Positions 12,650-61,290 of a stretch of DNA of 64,000 nt are shown here, piece after piece. The notes beneath the pieces were generated by a model. The model had not been told where the DNA came from. It saw only the letters and a program-made list of their open reading frames with translations, and searched no databases. The position numbers and the translations under genes are program-made. Each line of letters begins with the position of its first letter. The first letter of the stretch is position 1. The stretch covers positions 155,930,001-155,994,000 of the forward strand of contig OZ024740.1 of the NCBI GenBank assembly GCA_964016885.1. The letters are read 5' to 3'. The DNA comes from Eledone cirrhosa (taxonomy: Eukaryota).

Positions 12650-13205
12650 TTGAGTTTATGTTGGTTGTATACCAACACCTCAGTATGCAGGCTGGAGCAC
12701 TCGACGAAGTGCGCAGGTTGGTTTGGTTACTCCGGAGTAGTGTAAAATAAAGTTAAATAAAAGTCAAATGATTAAAATTTAGCTTCGTTTATTACTGCTA
12801 TATATATTTCAGTGACAGCCATCTTTGGCTGTGACCTCTTCAGGCAGTTTGAATTAGTATGGTATAGACAAGTACATATGTTGTTTAGGTGTATGATATT
12901 GTCAATACTCTGATATGCCCAGTTCCTTGTTGGGTTGTTAATTCACTGGGGAACTGGAGTCATATCTCTTTCAATTGTAAGTGATATGACTCCAGTTCCC
13001 CAGTGAATTAACAACCCAACAAGGAACTGGGCATATCAGAGTATTGACAATATCATACACCTAAACAACATATGTACTTGTCTATACCATACTAATTCAA
13101 ACTGCCTGAAGAGGTCACAGCCAAAGATGGCTGTCACTGAAATATATATAGCAGTAATAAACGAAGCTAAATTTTAATCATTTGACTTTTATTTAACTTT
13201 ATTTT
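12650..13205. mobile_element. Family F fold-back element (~222-bp perfect inverted arms) with a hammerhead in each arm
   Basis: 12745-12966 is the reverse complement of 12983-13205. (TA)n flanks. Confidence 0.88.
13101..13155 (+). ncRNA. Type I hammerhead (family F); mirror copy at 12794-12848 on minus strand
   Basis: ACTGC-CTGAAGA-GGTCACAGCCA AAGA TGGCTGTCACT-GAAA-TATATA-TA-GCAGT. Confidence 0.85.
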
Positions 13206-15671: not shown

Positions 15672-15674
15672 TAT

Positions 15675-16373
15675 TTAGAAACTGATGTTTTTTTTACAAA
15701 ATGAAAAACAACCGAGGTGTCCTACACGAGTGAAAGTATAAAGAAAAAGAGATGAAATCGAAAATGCAACTGAAGTCTTATTTTTTTAAAAAATATATAT
15801 ATTTATTTGGTTCCTTTACCGGTTTCACAGTTCTTCTGCTTTTCAAAAGGTGAGTTGAGATGGAGGGTCTGTGGTTTTTCTCACATCTGGTTGGTCTCTA
15901 AATGTTACTTGTTTTATATGGAAAAAGTGACTCGAAAGTCAGGTTTTTCGAGAAGTAATTTGATTGGTTTGTCAATAATTATAATAAATTTCGCGCCAGT
16001 TCGCGTTACAATAGTTCTTTAAATAAGAGAGAGAGAGGGGGGGGGGGGGGTTGTCACAGGTTGTTTCTTCATATATGAGTGTTTGAATTTTTTTTTACTT
16101 GAAACAAGGAGGCTCACGAAGGCTTTTTTTTGGTTGGTTATAAATGAAATTTGGCTGTCACGTGAACAAGTTTTCATTACATTCTTGCGCCCTTATTTGG
16201 AAAACTATTCTGTAGTCTTTATAGTGAATGTTATGACAATGGAGAGATAGTGGTCAAGGGAAAAGGGATTGGGAGAAATGTTCTGGTTCAGTGAATATGG
16301 TCAGCTGTCAGAGTTCAGGTGTCAGAGTTCAGATTTTCTATTGAGACTGAAGATATGTGTTTATTTGTGTGCT

Positions 16374-16406
<33 letters not shown>

Positions 16407-16960
16407 ATTGGAAGATGATTCTATTAGTAGAGATGGGGGAGGGAGTTGTGTGTGTGTGTATATGGGTGTTATGTGTGTGTGTGCGAGTATGTTAAGATGG
16501 AGAGAATATATATTTTGTGTGTGTGTATATATATATGTGTGTAGGAAAGTGGTTCTATTAGTAGAAATGGGAGGGAGTTGTAGGTGTGGGAGTTGTTATG
16601 TGTGTGTATGGGTGTTATGTGTGTGGGAGTATGGTTAGCATGTTAAGATGAAGAGAATATATATATATATATTGTGTGTGTGTGTATGTGTGTGTGTAGG
16701 AAAGTGATTCCTTTAGTAGGAAGATGATTCTATTAGTAGAGATGGGGGAGGGAGTTGTGTGTGTGTGTATATGGGTGTTATGTGTGTGTGTGCGAGTATG
16801 TTAAGATGGAGAGAATATATATTTTGTGTGTGTGTATATATATGTGTAGGAAAGTGGTTCTATTAGTAGAAATGGGGAGGGAGTTGTAGGTGTGGGGGTT
16901 ATTATGTGTGTGTATGGGTGTTATGTGTGTGGGAGTATGGTTTGCATGTTAAGATGAAGA

Positions 16961-17005
<45 letters not shown>

Positions 17006-18925
17006 GTGTGTGTGTATGTGTGTGTGTAGGAAAGTGATTCCTTTAGTAGGAATATTTTTGAATGAACATATTTTCCTGACTTTTTCGTGTTTGCTGTTGT
17101 ATTGCCAGTGCAAACGTATGTTAAGGTTTATTTAGTTCGGGTTTTAATTTTCTAAAGTAGAAGGTGTTATGTGTGTGTGTGTATGTCATATTGTGGTGTT
17201 GACATAATGTATATTAAACTTTATTTAATGTTGGTCTATATTTTTGAATAAACATATTTTCCTTATTTATTCGTATTTGTTCTGTTGTATTGTTAGCGCA
17301 AAGGTAAAATGGGAAGACTTGGAATTTGGGTGTCTTATTACTTGCGCAAATGTCTAGATGTGCACTTAGTGGTATCTGTCTCGTGGTTGGATCTCGTAAT
17401 TGTTGGCGATGAACTGTCATTCTGTTTCTGAGTGTGAGTTTAGTTTGTCCTATATAATCTTCATTGCATCCTTTACATTTAATGGCATAAAGTAGATTTT
17501 TTGATGAGCAAGTGAAGTGATTTTTTACAGTAAAATTTTGTCCTGATTTAAATGTATACGTGTTGCCTTCAATGAGGTGAGTGCAGGTTCCACAATTAGA
17601 GCGACCACATTTTTTGATACTTGGTTGTGGGTTTGTGGTAGGTAATTTGGCATTGGTGAGTAATGTTTTCAGTGATTTTGGTTGTCTTTTGCTTTTGATT
17701 ATTTTGTGTGTTTCAAGGGCTTTTTTCATTCTTGTGTTTTGTTTTAGTAGTGGGATGTTATTGTGAATAGTGTTGTAAGCTTCCGCATTTCTTGGGTTGT
17801 GTGTTGAGATATATGATAGAATATTGGACGTACCTTGAATTTGTTTCTGTTTCCGTAATTCATCAATGCCTATTGCTTTAGCCCTTTCTATTCCATTATT
17901 TATTAGTAATAGTGGGTACTCTCTCTCAAGTAGAATTTCCTTTAATTCTTGAAGTCTTTTATTTCGCGTTTCATAATTGGAGACAATTGTGCAAATTCTT
18001 CTTGCTAGGTTAAAAGGAATGTTCGTCTTCGTGTGCTTTGGATGGTTGGAGGTGAATAGCAGATATTGTTTGGAATCTGTTGTTTGTAGTGTATGTCAGT
18101 TTTGGCTGTATTCCATTGTGAATTGGATGTGGTTATTGATGCCGTTTATTAAGTTTTTGAAATCCTTCAGTTGGTCGAGTGTGTGGGACCAAAGAATGAG
18201 GCAATCATCCAAGTAGCGTTTCCAATTCTCTGATAAATATTTGTGGAAGTTCAATCCGTATTTTGATTTGGACTGTTCATATATCTGGACTTCTAAGTAT
18301 GCCATGACTAAGTTGGCATAAGTTGGAGCGGCTTTTGTGCCCATCGCAGTCCCCGATATTTGCTTGTAAGTATTGCCATCGAAATCAAAAAAGTTGTTCT
18401 GTAGGATGAATTTTAATCCCTCGGTAATGAAGCTTTTTTCTATTCTGTCAGGTATCTCATTGGGATATTTCTCTAGCCAGAATCCTATTGCTTCTAGTCC
18501 GTATTGGTGTGGGATCGTTGTGTAGAGATTCACTACATCGAAAGACACAATAATAGTGTCGTTGTTGACATGTTTGGGGAGGTGGTTTAAGAGGTCCAGA
18601 TCGTCTCTTACAAGGCTTGGTATGTGTTTCAGTATTGGTTTCAGTAGTATGTCTATAAAGTTGCTCAATCTGTGTGTTTCACATTGTGGGCCCGCTACAA
18701 TTGGTCTTAATTTAAGGTCTGTGGGGTATTGTGTGTTCACGCAGGCTGAGGTGGATTGTTTACAGACCAACCAGATGTGAGAAAAACCACAGACCCTCCA
18801 TCTCAACTCACCTTTTGAAAAGCAGAAGAACTGCGAAACCGGTAAAGGAACCAAATAAATATATATATTTTTAAAAAAAATAAGACTTCAGTTGCATTTT
18901 CGATTTCATCTCTTTTTCTTTATAT
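15675..18925 (-). mobile_element. PLE-B (Neptune-like) 5'-truncated copy with inverted pLTR piece at the 5' end
   Basis: RT: LRPIV, SFDVVNLYTTI, GTAMG, RYLDD (18096-18760). Cys-rich linker and LLY..YIGQT EN (17214-17729). 15740-15895 is inverted relative to 18765-18925. Confidence 0.92.
18811..18848 (+). ncRNA. Variant-core (U3-A8) minimal hammerhead of PLE-B; other copies at 15813-15850(-), 60368-60403(-), 61172-61207(+)
   Basis: CCTT-TTGAAAA-GCAG AAGAA CTGC-GAAA-CCGG-TA-AAGG. Confidence 0.8.
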
Positions 18926-19480: not shown

Positions 19481-19681
19481 ATAGGAACCAGTAAGACCCC
19501 GACAGCTGACCTCAAGCCGTTTCGACGGCTAATTCTGGAATAGTCCAGAATTAGCCGTCGAAACGGCTTGAGCTCAGCTGTCGGGGTCTTACTGGTTCCT
19601 ATTACCCACTCTACTACCTCAAGTATTGAGTACTTTGGTGCGTTATGGTCCACCTGGTTCCTTACCACATTTCCTTCGTTA
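19481..19681 (+). mobile_element. Family D short fold-back insertion
   Basis: ~58-bp inverted arms plus an 80-bp tail ending TTCCTTCGTTA in (TA)n. Confidence 0.8.
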
Positions 19682-35924: not shown

Positions 35925-38223
35925 TGTTATTCCTTGAATCTCAGTCATTGATGTTGGTTAACTGGAAAGTCCGTTGGATTGAATATCAAGCCACTACCTG
36001 CAGCCTCAGATATTCAGGACGTATCGGAGGGTTCTTGCTGTTCCAAGCAAGCATGCATTTTGAAGCGTTCCAAAAAGCGTGAAGGGGCCGATTTTCTTTA
36101 ACCATCCCTGGAAACTTTTGGAGATAGTCCCCAGTGCGCCTATGACAATCGGGATCACTTTGACTTCATGGCAGTTCCAAATCCTTTTCATCTCCCACTT
36201 TAGGTCCTGGTATCGGTTAATTTTCTCCCTCTCCTTCTCTTGCACTCTCGTGTCGAACGGGCAGGCCACATCCACAATCAGGCACGATCTTTTTTCTTTG
36301 TCCACAACCACCAGGTCAGGTCTATTGTGTTCCAGTTTTTTGTCCGTCTGTATCCTAAAATCCCACAGCACCTTCACCTGATTGTTCTCCATCACCGCCT
36401 CTGGCCTATGCTCATACCATTTCTCAGAATGTGGTAGATTGTTTACTTTGCACAGGTGCCAGTGGATCACCCTGCCCATCACATCGTGTCTCCAGCCCTT
36501 ATAGTGGGTCTGGGCTAGGTGTTTACACTCGGACACAATGTGAGCCACAGTCTCCTCTCTCTCTCCACAGATCCTGCACAGTGGGCTAGCCTCCTCCTTG
36601 TAGATATGGTGCTTCAACCACTTCGTTTTGAGGGCCTGCTCCTGCGCAGCCATTAGCATTCCTTCTGTAGCCTTTTTGAGGTCTCCTCTTCTCAACCAGT
36701 TCCATGTCTGTGGATCTCTAAATTCAGTTTTCTCAAAGAAGGTACTATGAAGGGATTTTCCCTTAAGGCTGCTCTTCCTCCTTGATGTTATTTCCTCCCT
36801 GGACATCCCCTGGCCTACTGTCCCCTCCTTCAGTACAGTTCTGAGCATTGGCTCCTTACTATAGGTCACGTATTTGTATAGGTTGTTTTTCTCCATCTGA
36901 ACACAGTCCTCTATGCTGATAAGACCTCTTCCACCCTCAGATCTCCTTAGGTAGAGTCTATCGACATCACTCCTCTTGTGGAACATGTTGTAGATAGTCA
37001 ATAGCTTCCTAGTCTTCCTATCCATTTCTTTTTGTTCAGCAACATTCCATCTCAGAATTCCCGCACTGTACCTAATAATAGACACAGCTCGGGAATTTAC
37101 TGCGCTTATGGCATTTCTGCTGTTCAGATGTGATTTCAATATGCTCCTTACTCTCCGAATGTATTCAGTTCTTAACAATTCCTTCATTTTTTTGTTCTTT
37201 ATGCCATCAGCCTCCAGAACGCCCAAATACTTGTATCCTTCCTCAGAGTCAATTTCCTTTATCATCTCACCTGTTGGTATCTGGATCCCATTACTTCTGC
37301 TCAACCTACCCCTCTTCATCACAATGACTCCACATTTACCAATACCAAACTGCATACATATATCACTGCTGAAAATACGGACAGTGTCAACAAGCACATC
37401 CAACTCCTTCTCACTTTTCCTGAAGAGCTTAAGATCGTCCATGAAGAGGAGGTGATTGATGGTAAGCTCTCCCCTTCCCAACTTGTATCCTGCTCTCACT
37501 TTTCGCAGCATAATGGTCAAGGGCATCAGGGCAAGGACAAACAACAGAGGGGACAGGCTATCTCCCTGGAAGATACCTCTCTTGATCTTCACGCTTCCCA
37601 AGGATACTCCAGTTGATGTCAACTCTGTCTCCCAGGACCCCATACTCCTGCCTAGCAACTGTCTGATGTTATCTGCCACCCTGAAGATCTCCAGGCTTTT
37701 GGTGATCCAGGAATGAGGCACCATGTCAAATGCCTTTCTGTAGTCTATCCATCCCATGGCAAGATCAGTGTGTCTCCTCCTGCAATTCCCCATTACCATC
37801 TTATCAATAAGCAACTGGTCCTTTGTACCACGTGACTTCTTTCGGCATCCTTTCTGTTCGTCCGGTAACAAGTTGTTTGTGTGGAGGTGATGGTAGATTT
37901 CCTCAGACACAATGCTCGTCAACAGTTTCCACATTACGGGCAGACATGTGATAGGTCTATAGTTGGTAGCATCATTACCCTTGATTCGGTCTTTCATTAT
38001 CAGAACTGTGGTACCTTTTGTCAACCACTCTGGCACCTCACCCGACACCAAGCAGTCATTGAACATGGCCGTCAGCTTCGGGTGGAGGGATGTTAGATGT
38101 TTAATCCAATACCCCTGCACACCATCTGGGCCTGGTGATTTCCAGTTGGTTAGTTTTTTGGCTTGCCCCTTAAGAGTTTCAACTGTGATACTCAAATCAG
38201 TCTGTTGCTGTGCCTGCTCACCG
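35925..38223 (-). mobile_element. R4/Dong-like non-LTR retrotransposon, open RT + CCHC + RLE frame (36006-38223), 5' truncated
   Basis: SPGPDG, YRPI, DYRKAFD, GIFQGDSLSP, FMDD, CRIC..H..C and PD-(D/E)xK motifs. (TAA)n flanks. Confidence 0.93.
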
Positions 38224-38272
<49 letters not shown>

Positions 38273-38594
38273 TTATTCTTTTTCGCAATTCTCCAAAAGT
38301 TCTGTTCCATCAGTCTCATTACCACTTTTCTCTTTTCCTCTCCTCTTTCTTCTCTCTATACCCTTCACATTTCTCATCTCATGCTTTAGACTATCTTTTT
38401 TCCCTTCTCTCCCGCTCTCTGTTCAATATGTAGTTATATCTTAACCCAACTTGTTACTATACATATAGTATCCAGCTGACTACAACTACCCTTGGCGCTA
38501 AAATATCCTACACTTTTATCAAAATTCATATACACTCATTGCTTCAAACCTTTTCAATTAATGTTTACACACCCACAGACACATATATACAAGG

Positions 38595-38970: not shown

Positions 38971-39210
38971 GCTATATAGACATATATATAAACGCACACA
39001 CAAACACACATGTATATATGCATATACACACACACATGTATGGACACACACACACACACATACACACACCCATACATATATATATATATACACATATAAA
39101 TATGAACAGAAGAAAAAATAATTTTGAAATTAATTCCATGTCATGATTTCATAAATATCTTCTTGAAGAAAAGTCATAGCCATTTTAACCATTGCTCTTC
39201 CTTTTTTCGC

Positions 39211-42200
39211 GTATAGTGTAGTCAGTGTGATACTATACATATAGTGTAGTCAGTGTGATACTATACATATAGTGTAGTCAGTGTGATACTATACATATAG
39301 TGTAGTCAGGGTGATACTATACATATAGTGTAGTCGGGGTGATACTATACGTATAGTGTAGTCAGTGTGATACTATACATATAGTGTAGTCGGGGTGATA
39401 CTATACATATAGTGTAGTCAGTATGATACTATACATATAGTGTAGTCAGTGTTATGCTATACATATAATGTACTCAAGGTGATACTATACATATAGTGTA
39501 GTCAGTGTGATACTATACATATAGTGTAGTCAGTGTGATACTATACATATAGTGTAGTCAGTATGATACTATACATATAATGTAGTCAGTGTGATACTAT
39601 ACATATAGTGTAGTCAGTGTGATACTATACATATAGTGTAGTCAGGGTGATACTATACATATAGTGTAGTCAGGGTGATACTATACATATAGTGTAGTCG
39701 GTGTGATACTATACATATAGTGTAGTCGGTGTGATACTATACGTATAGTGTAGTCGGTGTGATACTATACATATATTGTAGTCGGTGTGATACTATACGT
39801 ATAGTGTAGTCGGTGTGATACTATACGTATGGTGTAGTCAGTGTGATACTATACATATAGTGTAGTCAGTGTGATACTATACATATAGTGTAGTCAGTGT
39901 GATACTATACATATAGTGTAGTCAGTGTGATACTATATGTATAGTGTAGTCAGTGTGATACTATACATATAGTGTAGTCAGTGTGATACTATACATATAG
40001 TGTAGTCGGTGTGATACTATACATATAGTGTAGTCAGGGTGATACTATACATATAGTGTAGTCAGTATGATACTATACATATAGTGTAGTCAGTGTGATA
40101 CTATACATATAGTGTAGTCAGTGTGATACTATACTTATAGTGTAGTCAGTGTGATACTATACATATAGTGTAGTCAGTGTGATACTATACATATAGTGTA
40201 GTTAGTGTGATAATATACATATAGTGTAGTCGGTGTGATACTATACATATAGTGTAGTCAGTGTGATACTATACATATAGTGTAGTCGGGGTGATACTAT
40301 ACATATAGTGTAGTCGGTGTGATACTATACATATAGTGTAGTCAGTATGATACTATACGTATAGTGTAGTCAGTGTGATACTATACATATAGTGTAGTCA
40401 GTGTGATACTATACATATAGTGTAGTCAGTGTGATACTATACATATAGTGTAGTCAAGGTGATACTATACATATAGTGTAGTCAGTGTGATACTATACAT
40501 ATAGTGTAGTCGGTGTGATACTATACATATAGTGTAGTCAGTGTGATACTATACATATAGTGTAGTCAGTGTGATACTATACATATAGTGTAGTCAGTGT
40601 GATACTATACATATAGTGTAGTCAGTGTGATACTATACATATAGTGTAGTCAGTGTGATACTATACATATAGTGTAGTCAGTGTGATACTATACATATAG
40701 TGTAGTCAGTGTGATACTATACATATAGTGTAGTCAGTGTGATACTATACATATAGTGTAGTCAGTGTGATACTATACATATAGTGTAGTCAGTATGATA
40801 CTATACATATAGTGTAGTCAGTGTGATACTATACATATAGTGTAGTCAGTGTGATACTATACGTATAGTGTAGTCAGTGTGATACTATACATATAGTGTA
40901 GTCAGTGTGATACTATACATATAGTGTAGCCAGTGTGATACTATACATATAGTGTAGTCGGTGTGATACTATACATATAGTGTAGTCGGTGTGATACTAT
41001 ACATATAGTGTAGTCGGTGTGATACTATACATATAGTGTAGTCAGTATGATATTATATATATAGTGTAGTCAGGGTGATACTATACATATAGTGTAGTCA
41101 GTGTGATACTACACGTGTAGTGTAGTCAGTGTGATACTATACATATAGTGTAGTCAGGGTGATACTATACATATAGAGTAGTCAGTGTGATACTATACAT
41201 ATAGTGTAGTCGGTGTGATACTATACATATAGTGTAGTCGGGGTGATACTATACATATAGTGTAGTCAGTGTGATACTATACATATAGTGTAGTCGGTGT
41301 GATACTATACATATAGTGTAGTCAGTGTGATACTATACATATAGTGTAGTCAGTGTGATACTATACATATAGTGTAGTTAGTGTGATAATATACATATAG
41401 TGTCGTCGGTGTGATACTATACATATAGTGTAGTCAGTGTGATACTATACATATAGTGTAGTCGGGGTGATACTATACATATAGTGTAGTCAGTGTGATA
41501 CTATACATATAGTGTAGTCGGTGTGATACTATACATATAGTGTAGTCAGTGTGATACTATACATATAGTGTAGTCAGTGTGATACTATACATATAGTGTA
41601 GTTAGTGTGATAATATACATATAGTGTAGTCGGTGTGATACTATACATATAGTGTAGTCAGTGTGATACTATACATATAGTGTAGTCGGGGTGATACTAT
41701 ACATATAGTGTAGTTGGTGTGATACTATACATATAGTGTAGTCAGTGTGATACTATACATATAGTGTAGTCGGTGTGATACTATACATATAGTGTAGTCA
41801 GTGTGATACTATACATATAGTGTAGTCAAGGTGATACTATACATATAGTGTAGTCAGTGTGATACTATACATATAGTGTAGTCAGTGTGATACTATACAT
41901 ATAGTGTAGTCAGTGTGATACTATACATATAGTGTAGTCAGTGTGATACTATACATATAGTGTAGTTAGTGTGATACTATAAATATAGTGTAGTCGGTGT
42001 GATACTATACGTATAGTGTAGTCGGTGTGATACTATACATATATTGTAGTCGGTGTGATGCTATACATATAGTGTAGTCGGTGTGATACTATACATATAG
42101 TGTAGTCAGTATGATATTATATATATAGTGTAGTCAGGGTGATACTATACATATAGTGTAGTCAGTGTGATACTACACGTATAGTGTAGTCAGTGTGATA

Positions 42201-45200
42201 CTATACATATAGAGTAGTCAGGGTGATACTATACATATTGACTAGTCAGGGTGATACTATACATATAGAGTAGTCAGTGTGATACTATACATATAGTGTA
42301 GTCAGTGTGATATTATACGTATAGTGTAGTCAGTGTGATACTATACGTATAGTGTAGTCAGTGTGATACTATACATATAGTGAAGTCAGTGTGATACTAT
42401 ATATATAGAGTAGTCAGGGTGATACTATATATATACTGTAGTCAGTGTGATACTACACGTATGGTGTAGTCAGGGTGATACTATACATATAGTGTAGTCA
42501 GTGTGACACTATACATATAGTGTAGTCAGGGTGATACTATACGTATAGTGTAGTCAGGGTGATACTATATATATACCGTAGTCGGTGTGATACTATACGT
42601 ATAGTGTAGTCAGGGTGATACTATACATATAGTGTAGTCAGTGTGATACTATACATATAGTGTAGTCAGGGTGATACTATACGTATAGTGTAGTCAAGGT
42701 GATACTATACATATAGTGTAGACAGTGTGTTACTATACATATAGTGTAGTCAGGGTGATACTATACATATAGTGTAGTCAGTGTGATACTATACATATAG
42801 TGAAGACAGTGTGATACTATATATATAGAGTAGTCAGGGTGATACTATATATATACTGTAGTCAGTGTGATACTACACGTATGGTGTAGTCAGGGTGATA
42901 CTATACATATAGTGTAGTCAGTGTGACACTATACATATAGTGTAGTCAGTGTGATACTATACATATAGTGTAGTCAGTGTGATACTCTACGTATAGTGTA
43001 GTCAGTGTGATACTATACATATAGTGTAGTCAGTGTGATACTATACATATAGTGTAGTCAGTGTGATACTATACATATAGTGTAGTCAGAGTGATACTAT
43101 ACATATAGTGTAGTCAGAGTGATACTATACATATAGTGTAGTCAGAGTGATACTATACATATAGTGTAGTCAGTGTGATACTATACATAAAGTGTAGTCA
43201 GGGTGATACTATACATATAGTGTAGTCGGGGTGATACTATACATATAGTGTAGTCATTGTAATATTATACGTATAGTGTACTCTGGGTGATACTATACAT
43301 ATACTGTAGTCAGGGTGATACTATACATATAGTGTAGTCAGTGTGATACTATACATATTGTGTAGTCAGGGTGATACTATACATATAGTGAAGTCAGGGT
43401 GATACTATACATATAGTGTAGTCAGAGTGATTCTATACATATAGTGTAGTCGGGGTGATACTACACATATAGTGTAGTTAGTGTGATACTATATGTATAG
43501 TGTAGTCAGTGTGATACTATACGTGTAGTGTAGTCGGGCTGATATAATACGTATAGTGTAGTCAGTGTGATACTATACATATAGTGTAGTCAGTGTGATA
43601 CTATACATATAGTGTAGTCAGGGTGATACTATACATATAGTGTAGTCAGGGTGATACTATACGTATAGTGTAATCAGCGTGATACTATACATATAGTGTA
43701 GTCAGTGTGATACTATACATATAGTGTAGTCAGGGAGATACTATACATATAGTGTAATTAGTGTGATAATATACATATAGTGTAGTCGGTGTGATAATAT
43801 ATATATAGAGTAGTCAGTGTGATACTATATATATAGTGTAGTCAGTGTGATACTATACATATAGTGTAGTCAGGGTGATACTATACATATAGTGTAGTCA
43901 GGGTGATTCTATACTTATAGTGTAGTCAGTGTAATACTATACATATAATGTAGGCATGGTGATACTATACATATAGTGTAGTCAGGGTGATACTATACGT
44001 ATAGTGTAGTCGGGGTGATTCTATACATATAGTGTAGTCAGTGTGATACTATAAATATAGTGTAGTCGGTGTGATACTATACATATAGTGTAGGCAGGAT
44101 GATACTATACATATAGTGTAGTCAGTGTGATACTATACATATAGTGTAGTCAGTGTGATACTATAAATATAGTGTAGTCGGTGTGATACTATACATAGAG
44201 TGTAGTCGGGTTGATAATATACAATATAGTCGGGGTGATACTATACATATAGTGTAGTCGGTGTTATACTATACGTATCGTATAGTCGGTTGATACTATA
44301 CATATAGTGTAGTCAGTATGATACTATACATATAGTGTAGTCAGAGTGATGCTATACATATAGTGTAGTCAGTGTGATACTATACATATAGTGTAGTCAG
44401 AGTGATGCTATACATATAGTGTAGTCAGTATGATACTATACATATAGTGTAGTCAGTGTGATACTATACATATAGTGTAGTCAGGGTGATACTATACATA
44501 TAGTGTAGTCAGCGTGATACTATACATATAGTGTAGTCAGTGTGATACTATACATATAGTGTAGTCAGGGTGATACTATACATATAGTGTAGTCAGAGTG
44601 AAACTATACATATAGTGTAGTCAGTGTGATACTCGACATATATTGTAGTCGGTGTGATACTATACATATAGTGTAGTCAGGGTGATACTATACGTATAGT
44701 GTAGTCAGTGTGATACTATACATATAGTGTAGTCAGGGTGATACTATACATTTAGTGTAGTCTGTATGATACTATACGTATAGTGTAGTCAGTGTGATAC
44801 TATACGTATAGTGTAGTCAGTGTGATACTATACGTATAGTGTAGTCAGTGTGATACTATACATATAGTGTAGTCAGGGTGATACTATACATTTAGTGTAG
44901 TCTGTATGATACTATACATATAGTGTAGTCAGTGTGATACTATATCTATAGTGTAGTCAGTGTGATACTATACGTATAGTGTAGTCAGTGTGATACTATA
45001 CATATAGTGTAGTCAGGGTGATACTATACATTTAGTGTAGTCTGTATGATACTACACGTATAGTGTAGTCAGTATGATACTATACATATAGTGTAGTCAG
45101 TGTGATACTATACATATTGTGTAGTCAGGGTGATACTATACATATAGTGTAGTCAGTGTGATACTCTACGTATAGTGTAGTCAGTGTGATACTATAAATA

Positions 45201-47626
45201 TAGTGTAGTCGGTGTGATACTATACGTATAGTGTAGTCAGTATGATACTATACATATAGTGTAGTCGGTGTGATACTATACATTTAGTGTAGTCTGTATG
45301 ATACTATACATATAGTGTAGTCAGGGTGATACTATACATATAGTGTAGTTAGGGTGATTCTATACTTATAGTGTAGTCAGTGTGATGCTATAAATATAGT
45401 GTAGTCAGGGTGATACTATACGTATAGTGTAGTCAGTGTGATACTATACATATAGTGTAGTCAGTGTGATACTATACATATAGTGTAGTCAGTGTGATAC
45501 TCTACGTATAGTGTAGTCAGTGTGATACTATACATATAGTGTAGTCGGTGTGATACTATACATATAGTGTAGTCAGTGTGATACTATAAATATAGTGTAG
45601 TCGGTGTGATACTATACGTATAGTGTAGTCAGTATGATACTATACATTTAGTGTAGTCAGGGTGATACTATACATATAGTGTAGTCAGTGTGATACTATA
45701 CAGATAATGTAGTCGGTGTGATACTATACATATAGTGTAGTCAGTGTGATACTATACATATAGTGTAGTCAGTGTGATACTATACATATAGTGTAGTCGG
45801 TGTGATACTATACATATAGTGTAGTCGGTGTGATACTATACATATAGTGTAGTCAGTGTGATACTATACATATAGTGTAGTCAGTGTGATACTATATTTA
45901 TAGTGTAGTCAGTGTGATACTATACATATAGTGTAGTCAGTGTGATACTATACGTATAGTGTAGTCAGTGTGATACTATACATATAGTGTAGTCGGTGTG
46001 ATACTACACGTATAGTGTAGTCAGGGTGATACTATACATATAGTGTAGTCAGTGTTATGCTATACATATAATGTACTCAAGGTGATACTATACATATAGT
46101 GTAGTCAGTGTGATACTATACGTATAGTGTAGTCAGTGTGATACTATACGTATAGTGTAGTCAGTGTGATACTATACGTATAGTGTAGTCAGGGTGATAC
46201 TATACGTATAGTGTAGTCAGTGTGATACTATACGTATAGTGTAGTCAGTGTGATACTATACGTATAGTGTAGTCAGTGTGATACTATACATATAGTGTAG
46301 TCAGTGTGATACTATACGTATAGTGTAGTCAGTGTGATACTATACGTATAGTGTAGTCTGTGTGATACTATACATATAGTGTAGTCAGTGTGATACTATA
46401 CGTATAGTGTAGTCAGTGTGATACTATACATATAGTGCAGTCGGTGTGATACTATACGTATAGTGTAGTCAGTGTGATACTATACATATAGTGTAGTCAG
46501 TGTGATACTATACGTATAGTGTAGTCAGTGTGATACTATACATATAGTGCAGTCGGTGTGATACTATACGTATAGTGTAGTCAGGGTGATACTATACATA
46601 TAGTGTAGTCAGTGTTATGCTATACATATAATGTACTCAAGGTGATACTATACATATAGTGTAGTCAGTGTGATACTATACGTATAGTGTAGTCAGGGTG
46701 ATACTACACGTATAGTGTAGTCAGTGTGATACTATACGTATAGTGTAGTCAGGGTGATACTATACATATAGTGTAGTCAGGGTGATACTATACATATAGT
46801 GTAGTCAGTGTGATACTATACATATAGTGTAGTCAGTGTGATACTATACATATAGTGTAGTCAGTGTGATACTATACATATAGTGTAGTTAATGTGATAC
46901 TATACATATAGTGTAGTCAGTGTGATACTATACATATAGTGTAGTCGGTGTGATACTATACATATAGTGTAGTCAGGGTGATACTATACATATAGTGTAG
47001 TCAGTGTGATATTATACGTATAGTGTAGTCAGTGTGATACTATACATATAGTGTAGTCAGTGTGATACTCTACGTATAGTGTAGTCAGTGTGATACTATA
47101 CATATAGTGTAGTCAGTGTGATACTATACATATAGTGTAGTCAGTGTGATACTATACGTATAGTGTAGTCAGTGTGATACTATACGGATAGTGTAGTCTG
47201 TGTGATACTATACATATAGTGTAGTCAGTGTGATACTATACGTATAGTGTAGTCAGTGTGATACTATACATATAATGTAGTCAGTGTGATACTATACATA
47301 TAGTGTAGTCAGTGTGATACTATACGGATAGTGTAGTCTGTGTGATACTATACATATAGTGTAGTCAGTGTGATACTATACGGATAGTGTAGTCAGGGTG
47401 ATACTATACATATAGTGTAGTCAGTGTGATATTATACGTATAGTGTAGTCAGTGTGATACTATACATATAGTGTAGTCTGTGTGATACTATACATATAGT
47501 GTAGTCAGTGTGATACTATACATATAGTGTAGTCAGTGTGATACTATACATATAGTGTAGTCTGTGTGATACTATACATATAGTGTAGTCAGTGTGATAC
47601 TATACGGATAGTGTAGTCAATGTGAT
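39211..47626. repeat. Satellite, 28-bp unit ATAGTGTAGTCAGTGTGATACTATACAT, about 300 copies
   Basis: Period of 28 read directly. One register shift near 44220-44290. Confidence 0.98.
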
Positions 47627-48471
47627 AAATTACGATATTTTTGTTTCTTGAGTTGAAAGTGGTGAAAGGATTGGCAGGACAGATTATGAATGCGTCTTTC
47701 TTGGTGTCCTCCCCACATAACCGATTCTGAGAGACAGTAAGAAAGAGAGAGAGAGAGAGAAGAGGGAGAGAGATAGGTGTAGAGAGAGAGAGAGAGAGAG
47801 GTGTGACTGGTACCTTATTTATCAACGCTGTAAATATGAAAGTCATAGCTAGCCTCGGCGGGATTTGAATTCAGAGATTCACTTTTTCCTCTTCTCTTGA
47901 AGAAATCTGCTGTATTCAGAACTAGATAGGAGTTGGGCTCCGCCAGGTTTTAAAATGTTCTAGAAACGCCATATGTCAATACGACAACAGGCTATCGGCT
48001 TGTGGGTGGAGCAGTATTGTAATCTGTATCACCTAGCACTTTATGAAATCGGGATAAGCTCCGATCTGACGCGACTCGAGCTCCGAGACAGACTTTAGAA
48101 ATTCTCTAAAATTAAGCTCAATCCTGTGTCAAATCCATTACGTGATTTGTTTTTATTTATAGTCGAAGTATTTTCTCTTCACTTGCAGCACGTACTCACT
48201 ATCGAGCCACTAACGCGGAAGCTGGTGCTGTCGTAGGGAAATGGAGGGGCTACGTCGAACGCTTCTGATATAGCTTTCTCACTTCTATTCTTTCAAATTT
48301 TCCTCTTCTCTGGAAGAAATCTGCTGTATTCAGAACTTGATAGGAGTTGTGCTGCGCCAGGTTTTAACATGCCCTAGAAACGCCGTATGTCAATATGGCG
48401 CCCCTACGACTCCCTCAGGAATTACGGGTCCATATATACATACAATATTAAAAACAGGATTTCAGACTTAC

Positions 48472-49800: not shown

Positions 49801-50607
49801 TTAGAAATTATAAGCTTTCACAGACTAAAGAAATTTCTAGCCTGATAGTGGGGTTTATAACCCTCGGAGAAATGGAAAAAGATGAGAGTTGCAGTACATG
49901 GGAGTCGAACCCACATCTTTGGTTATCCAGACCAATGTGCTACCATTACACCAATACACATCCCGTCTCCTTCCATTCGAATTAGAAGCTATGAACTTAG
50001 CAAGTGAATGATAAACAAGCAAATTATAAATGTAAACATGTAAGTATGTTTTTGAAACGGTGCGCGAGTTTGAAAATTAGAAATTAGAAATTATAAGCTT
50101 TCACCGTATTTTAGACTAAAGAAATTTCTAGCCTGATAGTGGGGTTTATAATCCTCGGAGAAATGGAAAAAGATGAGTGCTGCTGTACATGGGAGTCGAA
50201 CCCAGATCTTTGGTTATTTGGTTAAAATACGGTGAAAGCTTATAATTTCTAATTTCTAATTTTCAAACTCGCGCACCGTTTCAAAAACATACATGTTTAC
50301 ATTTATAATTTGCTTGTTTATCATTCACTTGCTAAGTTCATAGATTCTAATTCGAATGAAAGGAGACGGGATGTGTATTGGTGTAATGGTAGCACATTGG
50401 TCTGGATAACCAAAGATGTGGGTTCGACTCCCATGTACGGCAACACTCATCTTTTTCCATTTCTCCGAGGGTTATAAACCCCACTATCAGGCTAGAAATT
50501 TCTTTAGTCTAAAATACGGTGAAAGCTTATAATTTCTAATTTCTAATTTTCAAACAAGCGCACCGTTTCAAAAACATACTTACATGTTTACATTTATAAT
50601 TTGCTTG
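49801..50607. mobile_element. Family H: tandem/fold-back 287-bp repeat containing a tRNA-like unit
   Basis: Left arm 49801-50217(-) is ~1.45 monomers and right arm 50223-50607(+) is ~1.3 monomers. (TA)n flanks. Confidence 0.85.
50372..50442 (+). tRNA. tRNA-like cloverleaf (repeat-borne, non-canonical anticodon loop CTGGATA); mirror at 49890-49960(-)
   Basis: D-arm GTGT/GCAC, anticodon stem TTGGT/ACCAA, T-arm GTGGG TTCGACT CCCAT, imperfect acceptor stem, T5 tract ~10 nt downstream. Confidence 0.65.
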
Positions 50608-60324: not shown

Positions 60325-61290
60325 AGGAGTCTTATTTTTTAAAAAAATATATATATTTATTTGGTTTCTTTACCGGTTTCGCAGTTCTTCTGCTTTTCAA
60401 AAGTAGAGTTGAGATGGAGGGTCTGTAGTTTTTCTCACATCTGGTTGGTCTCTGAATGTTACTTGTTTTATATGGAAAAAGTGGCTCGAAATGCCAGGTT
60501 TTTCGAGAAGTAATTTGATTGGTTGGTCAATAATTATAATAAATTTCGCGGCAGTTCGCGTTACAAAGTTCTTCAAACAAGGGGGGGGGGGGGGTGTCAC
60601 AGGTTGTTTTTTCATATATGAGTGTTTGAATTTCTTTTTACTTAAAAAAAAGGGGGCTTACGAATGCTTTTTTAAAATAAACGTAATTTGATTGGTTATA
60701 AATGAAATTATGGCTGTCACGTGAACAAGTTTTCATTAAATTTTCGCGCCCTTATTTGGAAATCTATTCTGTAGCCTTTTTAGAGAATTTTATGACAAGT
60801 AAAAGATAATGGTCAAGAGAAATTGGGTGGGAGAATTGTATTGGTTCAGTGAATATGGTTAGTTCGCTGGGGTGTCAGAATTCAGATTTTCTATTGAATA
60901 AAAAAAAAGCAGTCGTGAGCCCCCTTTTTTTTTAAGTAAAAAGAAATTCAAACACTCATATATGAAAAAAACAACCTGTGACACCCCCCCCCCCCTGTTT
61001 GAAGAACTTTGTAACGCGAACTGCCGCGAAATTTATTATAATTATTGACCAACCAATCAAATTACTTCTCGAAAAACCTGGCATTTCGAGCCACTTTTTC
61101 CATATAAAACAAGTAACATTCAGAGACCAACCAGATGTGAGAAAAACTACAGACCCTCCATCTCAACTCTACTTTTGAAAAGCAGAAGAACTGCGAAACC
61201 GGTAAAGGAACCAAATAAATATATATATATTTTTTTAAAAATAAGACTCCAGTTGCATTTTCGATTTCATCTTTTTTTCTTTATATATAT
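60325..61290. mobile_element. PLE-B solo pLTR fold-back (60325-60897 minus, 60900-61290 plus)
   Basis: Homologous to 15770-16345. Inverted arms of ~350 bp, no ORF. Confidence 0.88.

Follow-up and report, generated by a model that had tools for sequence, protein, structure and literature searches.

We propose that an abundant, young Penelope-like element (PLE) in the genome of Eledone cirrhosa carries a type I hammerhead in which U3-A8 has become fixed in place of C3-G8, and that this ribozyme probably, though by no means certainly, cleaves slowly and with the help of dimerization or a protein, leaving most of the element RNA uncut. Four copies of the motif are present in the window, that is, the whole 64,000-nucleotide stretch of DNA that was analysed. 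Positions within them follow the hammerhead numbering. The copy at 18811..18848 on the forward strand reads CCTT TTGAAAA GCAG AAGAA CTGC GAAA CCGG TA AAGG, with U3 at 18815, A8 at 18820, stem II at 18822-25/18831-34, GAAA at 18835-38, U16.1 at 18843, A17 at 18844 and the predicted cut, after a GUA site, between 18844 and 18845. A sense copy at 15813..15850 on the reverse strand (U3 at 15846) has C11.1 changed to U and reads CTGT, a CpG transition that leaves a G-U pair. The remaining two, at 60367..60404 on the reverse strand (U3 at 60400) and 61171..61208 on the forward strand (U3 at 61175), are the two arms of an inverted pair of terminal-repeat fragments and have a 3-bp stem I consisting of CTT/AAG only. 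The four copies can be aligned across ∼140 nt. Apart from the U3-A8 swap at 3:8, every consensus core letter is present in the window family. The G10.1-C11.1 closing pair is retained (as G-U in the 15846 copy), and the palindromic 15.2-16.2 region is ACCGGU. The extra base between A9 and stem II, which is usual but not universal in PLE minimal hammerheads, is absent.

The preliminary description had read a TTGAAAA core, both stems, an ACCGGT palindrome and a GUA site in all four copies, and these were confirmed by the sequence and by a descriptor scan of the window with positions 3, 7 and 8 left free. The scan returned the four U3-A8 copies, two canonical CUGAAGA motifs (13106 on the forward strand and 12843 on the reverse strand) and three weak matches. 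The warning in the preliminary description that a CUGANGA pattern would miss the U3-A8 motif also holds, the window core being UUGAAAA. When one mismatch was allowed, the 11-mer TTGAAAAGCAG from the motif matched the window five times (four of them exactly) against a shuffle mean of 0.48, and none of 100 shuffles reached five matches. The lone 38-mer showed no folding stability in excess of its shuffles (z −0.94, with 37 of the 200 shuffled versions folding equally well), and the case for the motif therefore rests on its core letters, its position and comparison rather than on folding energy. When the window was searched against Rfam, no hammerhead model matched even up to E=1, and only microsatellite-driven miRNA matches and two tRNA-like matches were returned. 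Since the canonical CUGAAGA motif at 13106 was also missed, this test is insensitive to minimal motifs and the miss is not due to the U3-A8 core alone. That canonical motif belongs to a second repeat, an inverted pair at 13101-13155 (forward) and 12794-12848 (reverse) with a long bulged stem II, a palindromic TATATA insert and A17. The tRNA-like matches are likewise inverted (49894-49957, reverse; 50375-50439, forward) and are possibly SINE heads.

The copy at 18811-18848 lies within an inverted, 5′-truncated terminal repeat (pLTR; 18759..18923, forward strand) and is antisense to the element ORF, a circumstance that the preliminary description had overlooked together with the U3-A17 pairing discussed below. 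By blastn this repeat starts 86 nt before the predicted cut and is without the TATA-like box; its right end, read from the sequence to within 2 nt, falls in a (TA)n tract near +78. Position 18845, where it had been proposed to look for RNA 5′ ends, is thus a poor place for them, since the copy is inverted and has no promoter box. The adjoining 5′-truncated ORF2 (17214..18758, reverse strand) encodes a reverse transcriptase (RT; PF00078), a CX4CXXC linker and a GIY-YIG domain (PF01541), with a single in-frame stop at 18096-18098. It is followed by the 3′ UTR and the sense-orientation terminal repeat (15674..17213, reverse strand), which runs into a (TA)n tract and ends there near +146, the left end being read from the sequence to within 3 nt. 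The sense motif copy is 1.37 kb beyond the ORF2 stop codon. A TATAAAA box at 15912..15918 on the reverse strand, a putative promoter element, is 30 nt upstream of the predicted start, an A at 15888 on the same strand and 72 nt ahead of the cut.

Whole copies elsewhere in the genome have the order repeat(motif)-ORF1-ORF2-repeat(motif), with ∼4.7 kb from motif to motif (locus L064). The motif is found ∼195 nt before ORF1 and again ∼1 kb after ORF2, and four loci (L062, L064, L065 and L070) carry it in each of the two terminal repeats, in the same sense as the ORF. The GIY-YIG end of ORF2 has at least 150 genomic matches of 97–100% identity, many of them inside an open 775-codon frame. PF00078 followed by a C-terminal PF01541, a DKG motif, terminal repeats and two 3′ ends identify the element as an endonuclease-positive PLE, whose ORF1 (∼400 amino acids) had no Pfam match. 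The linker finger reads CGRSNCGTC at ORF2 residue 644; such a finger also occurs in Nematis. Neptune elements are described with a CX2-5CxxC linker before the endonuclease and a (TA)n target bias (PMC8557442), and the CX4CXXC linker and (TA)n targets of the present element point to the Neptune type, an assignment made beside an RT tree without named Neptune references. ORF1 and ORF2 overlap in the −1 frame (L064:432-3898; near 4260 in L106 of the sister family described below), and CATTTTTTAGAC, kept in the overlap of both families, includes the heptamer U UUU UUA when read in the frame of ORF1. Heptamers of this form obey the slippery-site rules, and this one is likely a site of −1 ribosomal frameshifting.

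As the preliminary description had supposed, the double change is the state of the family and not decay. A genomic pattern in which seven core letters were left free gave 11,776 matches, with UUGAAAA in 94 of 100 among the matches listed. C3 occurs in 36 of the 11,776, always with A8, and G8 in 27, always with U3; C3 and G8 are never found together (0/11,776). Older subfamilies, distinguished by a different fourth stem II pair, gave 7,083 matches, with UUGAAAA in 100 of 100 among the matches listed, 11 C3-only matches and 12 G8-only matches. A genome-wide search for an ancestral C3-G8 subfamily found only two CUGANGA matches, which exceeds the ∼0.06 expected from independent mutation with roughly 2,300, an estimate made from a listing, as the denominator. 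These two copies are 73–83% identical, heavily decayed and without a proper stem I; one resembles a deletion product, and the inverted neighbour of one reads UUGAAAA. They were rejected as a C3-G8 subfamily because of this decay, the defective stem I and the deletion-like form of one of them, and they may be relics of the ancestral C3-G8 form.

Comparison with other elements indicates that the swap has occurred more than once. Among 120 loci with related RTs the descriptor found 32 motifs, and all 29 in sense orientation (26 distinct) are Watson–Crick at 3:8 (23 C-G, 4 U-A, 1 A-U and 1 G-C), which bears out the earlier statement that these positions covary. None of the 32 has A17. Of the nearest 15 loci only L128 and L134 have the motif, both with C3-G8 and U17 and with the anatomy of the window element; the U3-A8 state is therefore likely derived. 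An RT tree was attempted with 35 loci, L138 and L146 being left out for too-short segments, and in it two U-A cases each stand beside a C-G neighbour at starred support, which argues that the 3:8 swap arose repeatedly. The closest protein relatives (P0002-P0007) come without flanking DNA and lie outside the motif comparison. Some Penelope-type RTs (L205-L244) come from contigs deposited under bacterial genomes or MAGs, where they are probably contamination from host animals.

The suggestion that U3-A8 is a rare natural variant did not stand, since it is in print both for Schistosoma PLEs, with ∼1,300 hits in S. mansoni (PMC4209133), and, from 2011, for natural hammerheads generally (PMC3088659). 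The U3-A8 core alone is thus ordinary, being published and recurring across hosts. The Cercyon PLEs of S. mansoni (Cervera and De la Pena 2014, PMC4209133) have the same type I motif in their terminal repeats with U3-A8 covariation, and the supplement to that paper includes a PLE-linked UUGAAAA(A) core as in the window family. However, Cercyon differs in having an extra base after A9, a stem II of 6 bp and, in the machine-read alignment, an apparent U17, and in lacking a palindromic insert, whereas the window family has no extra base, a 4-bp stem II, the 4-nt palindrome CCGG and an A17 that can pair with U3. At least two entries of the published alignment also lack the extra base. The PLE hammerheads of Drosophila, mosquito and shrimp, whose helix III is small and palindromic, resemble the window motif in their short stem I, palindromic insert and predicted need for a dimer (PMC4209133), and L128 and L134 in their 4-bp stem II, lack of an extra base and 4-nt palindrome, but all of these are C3-G8, with U17 in the latter two loci. 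Neither U3-A8 combined with A17 nor a family fixed for A13C turned up in a literature search, which left most subscription papers beyond its reach.

A17 offers U3 a potential second partner. In ViennaRNA predictions a U3-A17 pair extends stem I across the cleavage site and is favoured, by 1.7 kcal/mol for the monomer and by 1.4 kcal/mol for the dimer, so that position 3 is not predicted to be free of pairing with 17 as the NUH logic requires. The helices are short (4 bp in stem II and 3–4 bp in stem I), and stem III can form only if two molecules pair. For the 18811-18848 copy the double-hammerhead frame with U3-A17 is the predicted dimer minimum at −20.3 kcal/mol, against −18.9 kcal/mol with U3 free; a duplex of the self-complementary CUUUUGAAAAG reaches only −7.6 kcal/mol, far short of the hammerhead dimer. 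This is the only one of the four window copies in which the full hammerhead frame is the predicted minimum. In the other three the minimum lacks stem I: stems II and III only are predicted in two of them, as in the sister family, and stem III only in the CTGT copy. The predicted U3-A17 pair would lower the expected activity and has no bearing on homology. A precedent is provided by G17 variants (Kalweit and Hammann 2013, PMC3884650), in which a 3-17 Watson–Crick pair, here C3-G17, is the proposed cause of slow cleavage through trapping of an inactive fold; ribozymes able to form it are 8–100-fold slower if tertiary-stabilised and at least 300-fold slower if minimal. The C3-G17 pair was engineered, however, whereas the U3-A17 pair occurs naturally and is the weaker of the two, so that what it does is judged by analogy. 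When a type III hammerhead with C17 was subjected to saturation and pairwise mutagenesis, the G3-C8 swap was the only one reported to rescue (PMC9901934), which suggests that tolerance of U3-A8 depends on context. In view of that result and of the potential of U3 to pair with A17, full rescue of the window motif by the U3-A8 swap appears doubtful.

A sister family in the same genome (52–57% protein identity in ORF2 and 40–45% in ORF1) has the motif in the same place. It has kept UUGAAAA, the palindrome and A17, has only UUU/AAA in stem I, shows a compensatory change in stem II (GCAG/CTGC to GCAT/ATGC) and has GCAA in place of GAAA. C13 is found in 4,332 exact matches against 74 with another base (24 A, 11 G and 39 T by hand count), a spectrum of decay from a C master. 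Sampled sister copies (L066:8116 and 8202, L103, L106 and L109) have broken frames. The motifs of the two families are identical at 26 of 30 nt, against 43–65% in six flanking segments, 65% in ORF2 DNA and a shuffle baseline of 45.5%, which argues for selection on the motif in both. In work with minimal ribozymes the A13C change abolishes activity. A13 is also listed as part of the consensus core (PMC3088659), and A13C in the sister is a second, likely disabling core change that has spread in thousands of copies, although an A at position 8 might allow C13 to be tolerated. Conservation alone does not prove catalysis, since the sister retains the motif with A13C.

Copy ends bear on which RNA was the template, and they are given in coordinates in which 0 is the first base after the cut. 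The 3′ ends are at +78 in 53 of 160 copies and at +146 in 75 of 160, with TA repeats following. Of 169 5′ ends, 84 lie at −76..−57, with a peak at −73 to −69, and 5 lie within 5 nt of the cut, the loci for all these counts having mostly been picked for an intact motif and so being biased against cut-site ends. The 5′ pile-up sits 29–30 nt below a TATAAAA at −102; in the sister 16 of 47 5′ ends are at −79..−64, with the box at −104. This is the usual spacing from a TATA box to a start, and copying of a cap leaves an extra G at the end of the copy. In a few copies (for example L012 and L300) the A at −72 is preceded by an additional G, which would be expected from cap copying. From these positions we infer a Pol II transcription start 72 nt before the cut. 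A hairpin is predicted at this start (18773-18803, forward, and 15858-15888, reverse, in the window; also in sister locus L106), and its sequence differs between the families while pairing is kept in each. Because both RT starts are downstream of the cut and the copies contain the whole motif, the templates were either uncut or rejoined at the cut site; on the letters of the copies, uncut templates are likely.

Copies that start at the cut site are rare and are not specific to the family with intact GAAA. Genome-wide they number 246 of 15,625 in the window family and 154 of 5,321 in the sister before removal of indels. By eye, roughly 9 (window family) and 42 (sister) of 100 matches listed are indels or duplications, and discounting these leaves ∼1.4% and ∼1.7%, respectively. 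Two bystander copies begin exactly at the cut, and among 100 of 398 junction matches listed a hand count gave about 35 at −3..+2 against 10 at −10..−4. Such starts were nevertheless rejected as a footprint of cleavage, since the A13C sister has an equal rate and A-rich microhomology and a TTTGG fold-back explain many of them. As they are no commoner than in the sister, they provide no genomic footprint of cutting in the window family.

A comparable use of uncut RNA is described for Poseidon PAc of Anolis (Frangieh et al. 2024, PMC11167929), which like the window element has a hammerhead at the junction of repeat and ORF. In PAc cleavage is protein-assisted, uncut RNA is the dominant template and two internal RT starts downstream of the motif define a ‘tail’, for which +78 and +146 are the counterparts in the window family. 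Unlike PAc, in which a canonical core overlaps the start codon of a single ORF and the tail is 30–40 bp, the window family has two ORFs, a motif wholly in the leader and a 68-nt tail. PLE minimal hammerheads are credited with low activity and a need for dimers (PMC4209133). In the mechanism that we favour, transcription would begin 72 nt before the cut, and two element RNAs would pair through the ACCGGU palindrome and so supply stem III. U3-A8 would replace C3-G8 yet compete with U3-A17 pairing, by which stem I would be lengthened across the cleavage site; cleavage would be slow owing to the short stem I, the lack of an evident tertiary contact and this alternative pairing, possibly with assistance from an element protein. 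Reverse transcription would begin internally at +78 and +146 and read through the intact motif. A weak ribozyme would suit the element, since a strong one at the leader position would strip the cap from its only message.

The competing explanations differ in whether the motif cuts at all. We regard it as a serious but rather less than even possibility that it no longer does so and persists as an RNA structure (stem II together with ACCGGU) that pairs RNAs or binds an element protein; U3-A8 with A17 would then have disabled the motif and left A13C free to fix in the sister. The near-uniform C13 of the sister, its compensatory stem II and intact palindrome, the predicted dimers without stem I, the absence of A17 beside related elements and the equal rarity of cut-site 5′ ends in both families all fit such a loss, as does the finding that cleavage-dead mutants still insert in vitro (PMC11167929). 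It has to contend with the retention of U4, G5, A6, A9, G12, A14, A15.1 and U16.1 in both families and, in the window family with its older subfamilies, of A13, since a dimerization palindrome alone would not require conserved core letters; moreover, the inactivating effect of A13C is that seen in minimal ribozymes, and C13 could be tolerated with A8. A more specific version, in which the hammerhead was switched off stepwise (U3-A8 with A17, then A13C) and conserved for ACCGGU-mediated RNA pairing that serves a dimeric RT, seems to us fairly unlikely. If true, it would explain why insertions occur as head-to-head inverted pairs, the two arms of which often terminate at different RT starts, and it would provide evidence from nature that PLE retrotransposition can do without self-cleavage.

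At the other extreme, U3-A8 could rescue fully, with efficient cutting followed by religation or circularization that restores an intact motif in the genomic copies. Covarying 3:8 pairs are reported to be active in vitro (PMC3088659, citing earlier work) and circular templates have been proposed for PLEs (PMC4209133). We nevertheless consider this improbable, since the 5′ pile-up below the TATA-like box fits linear uncut transcripts and not circles, and stem I is short with U3-A17 predicted to be favoured. Chance resemblance, or decay of a canonical motif after insertion, has a negligible claim: it could draw on the unremarkable stability of the 38-mer, the Rfam result and the two old CUGANGA copies, but the latter are decayed relics, the position of the motif in the terminal repeat is fixed, and the absence of C3-G8 from all 11,776 matches rules it out for the window family. 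Slow, assisted cleavage of a U3-A8 hammerhead thus remains our preferred reading. The role of hammerheads in PLEs is still regarded as open (PMC8557442, PMC11167929), and this genome allows two families, both apparently copied from uncut RNA, to be compared as nature provides them: the U3-A8/A17 family, which exceeds 11,000 copies and has open frames, and its A13C sister, which exceeds 4,000.

Several other features were noted. Another genomic family (L031-L060) matches CTGATGA...GAAACCGGT with 110 matches, fewer than the 154 of the reversed control. Within the window, a near-perfect palindrome of 122 nt (19481-19602; 118 of 122 positions self-complementary) lies between TA tracts, and a 28-nt tandem array of ∼300 copies spans about 39060-47700. 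A 767-codon open frame at 36006-38309 on the reverse strand is non-LTR RT-like and has, as judged by eye, a C-terminal zinc finger and a restriction-like nuclease.
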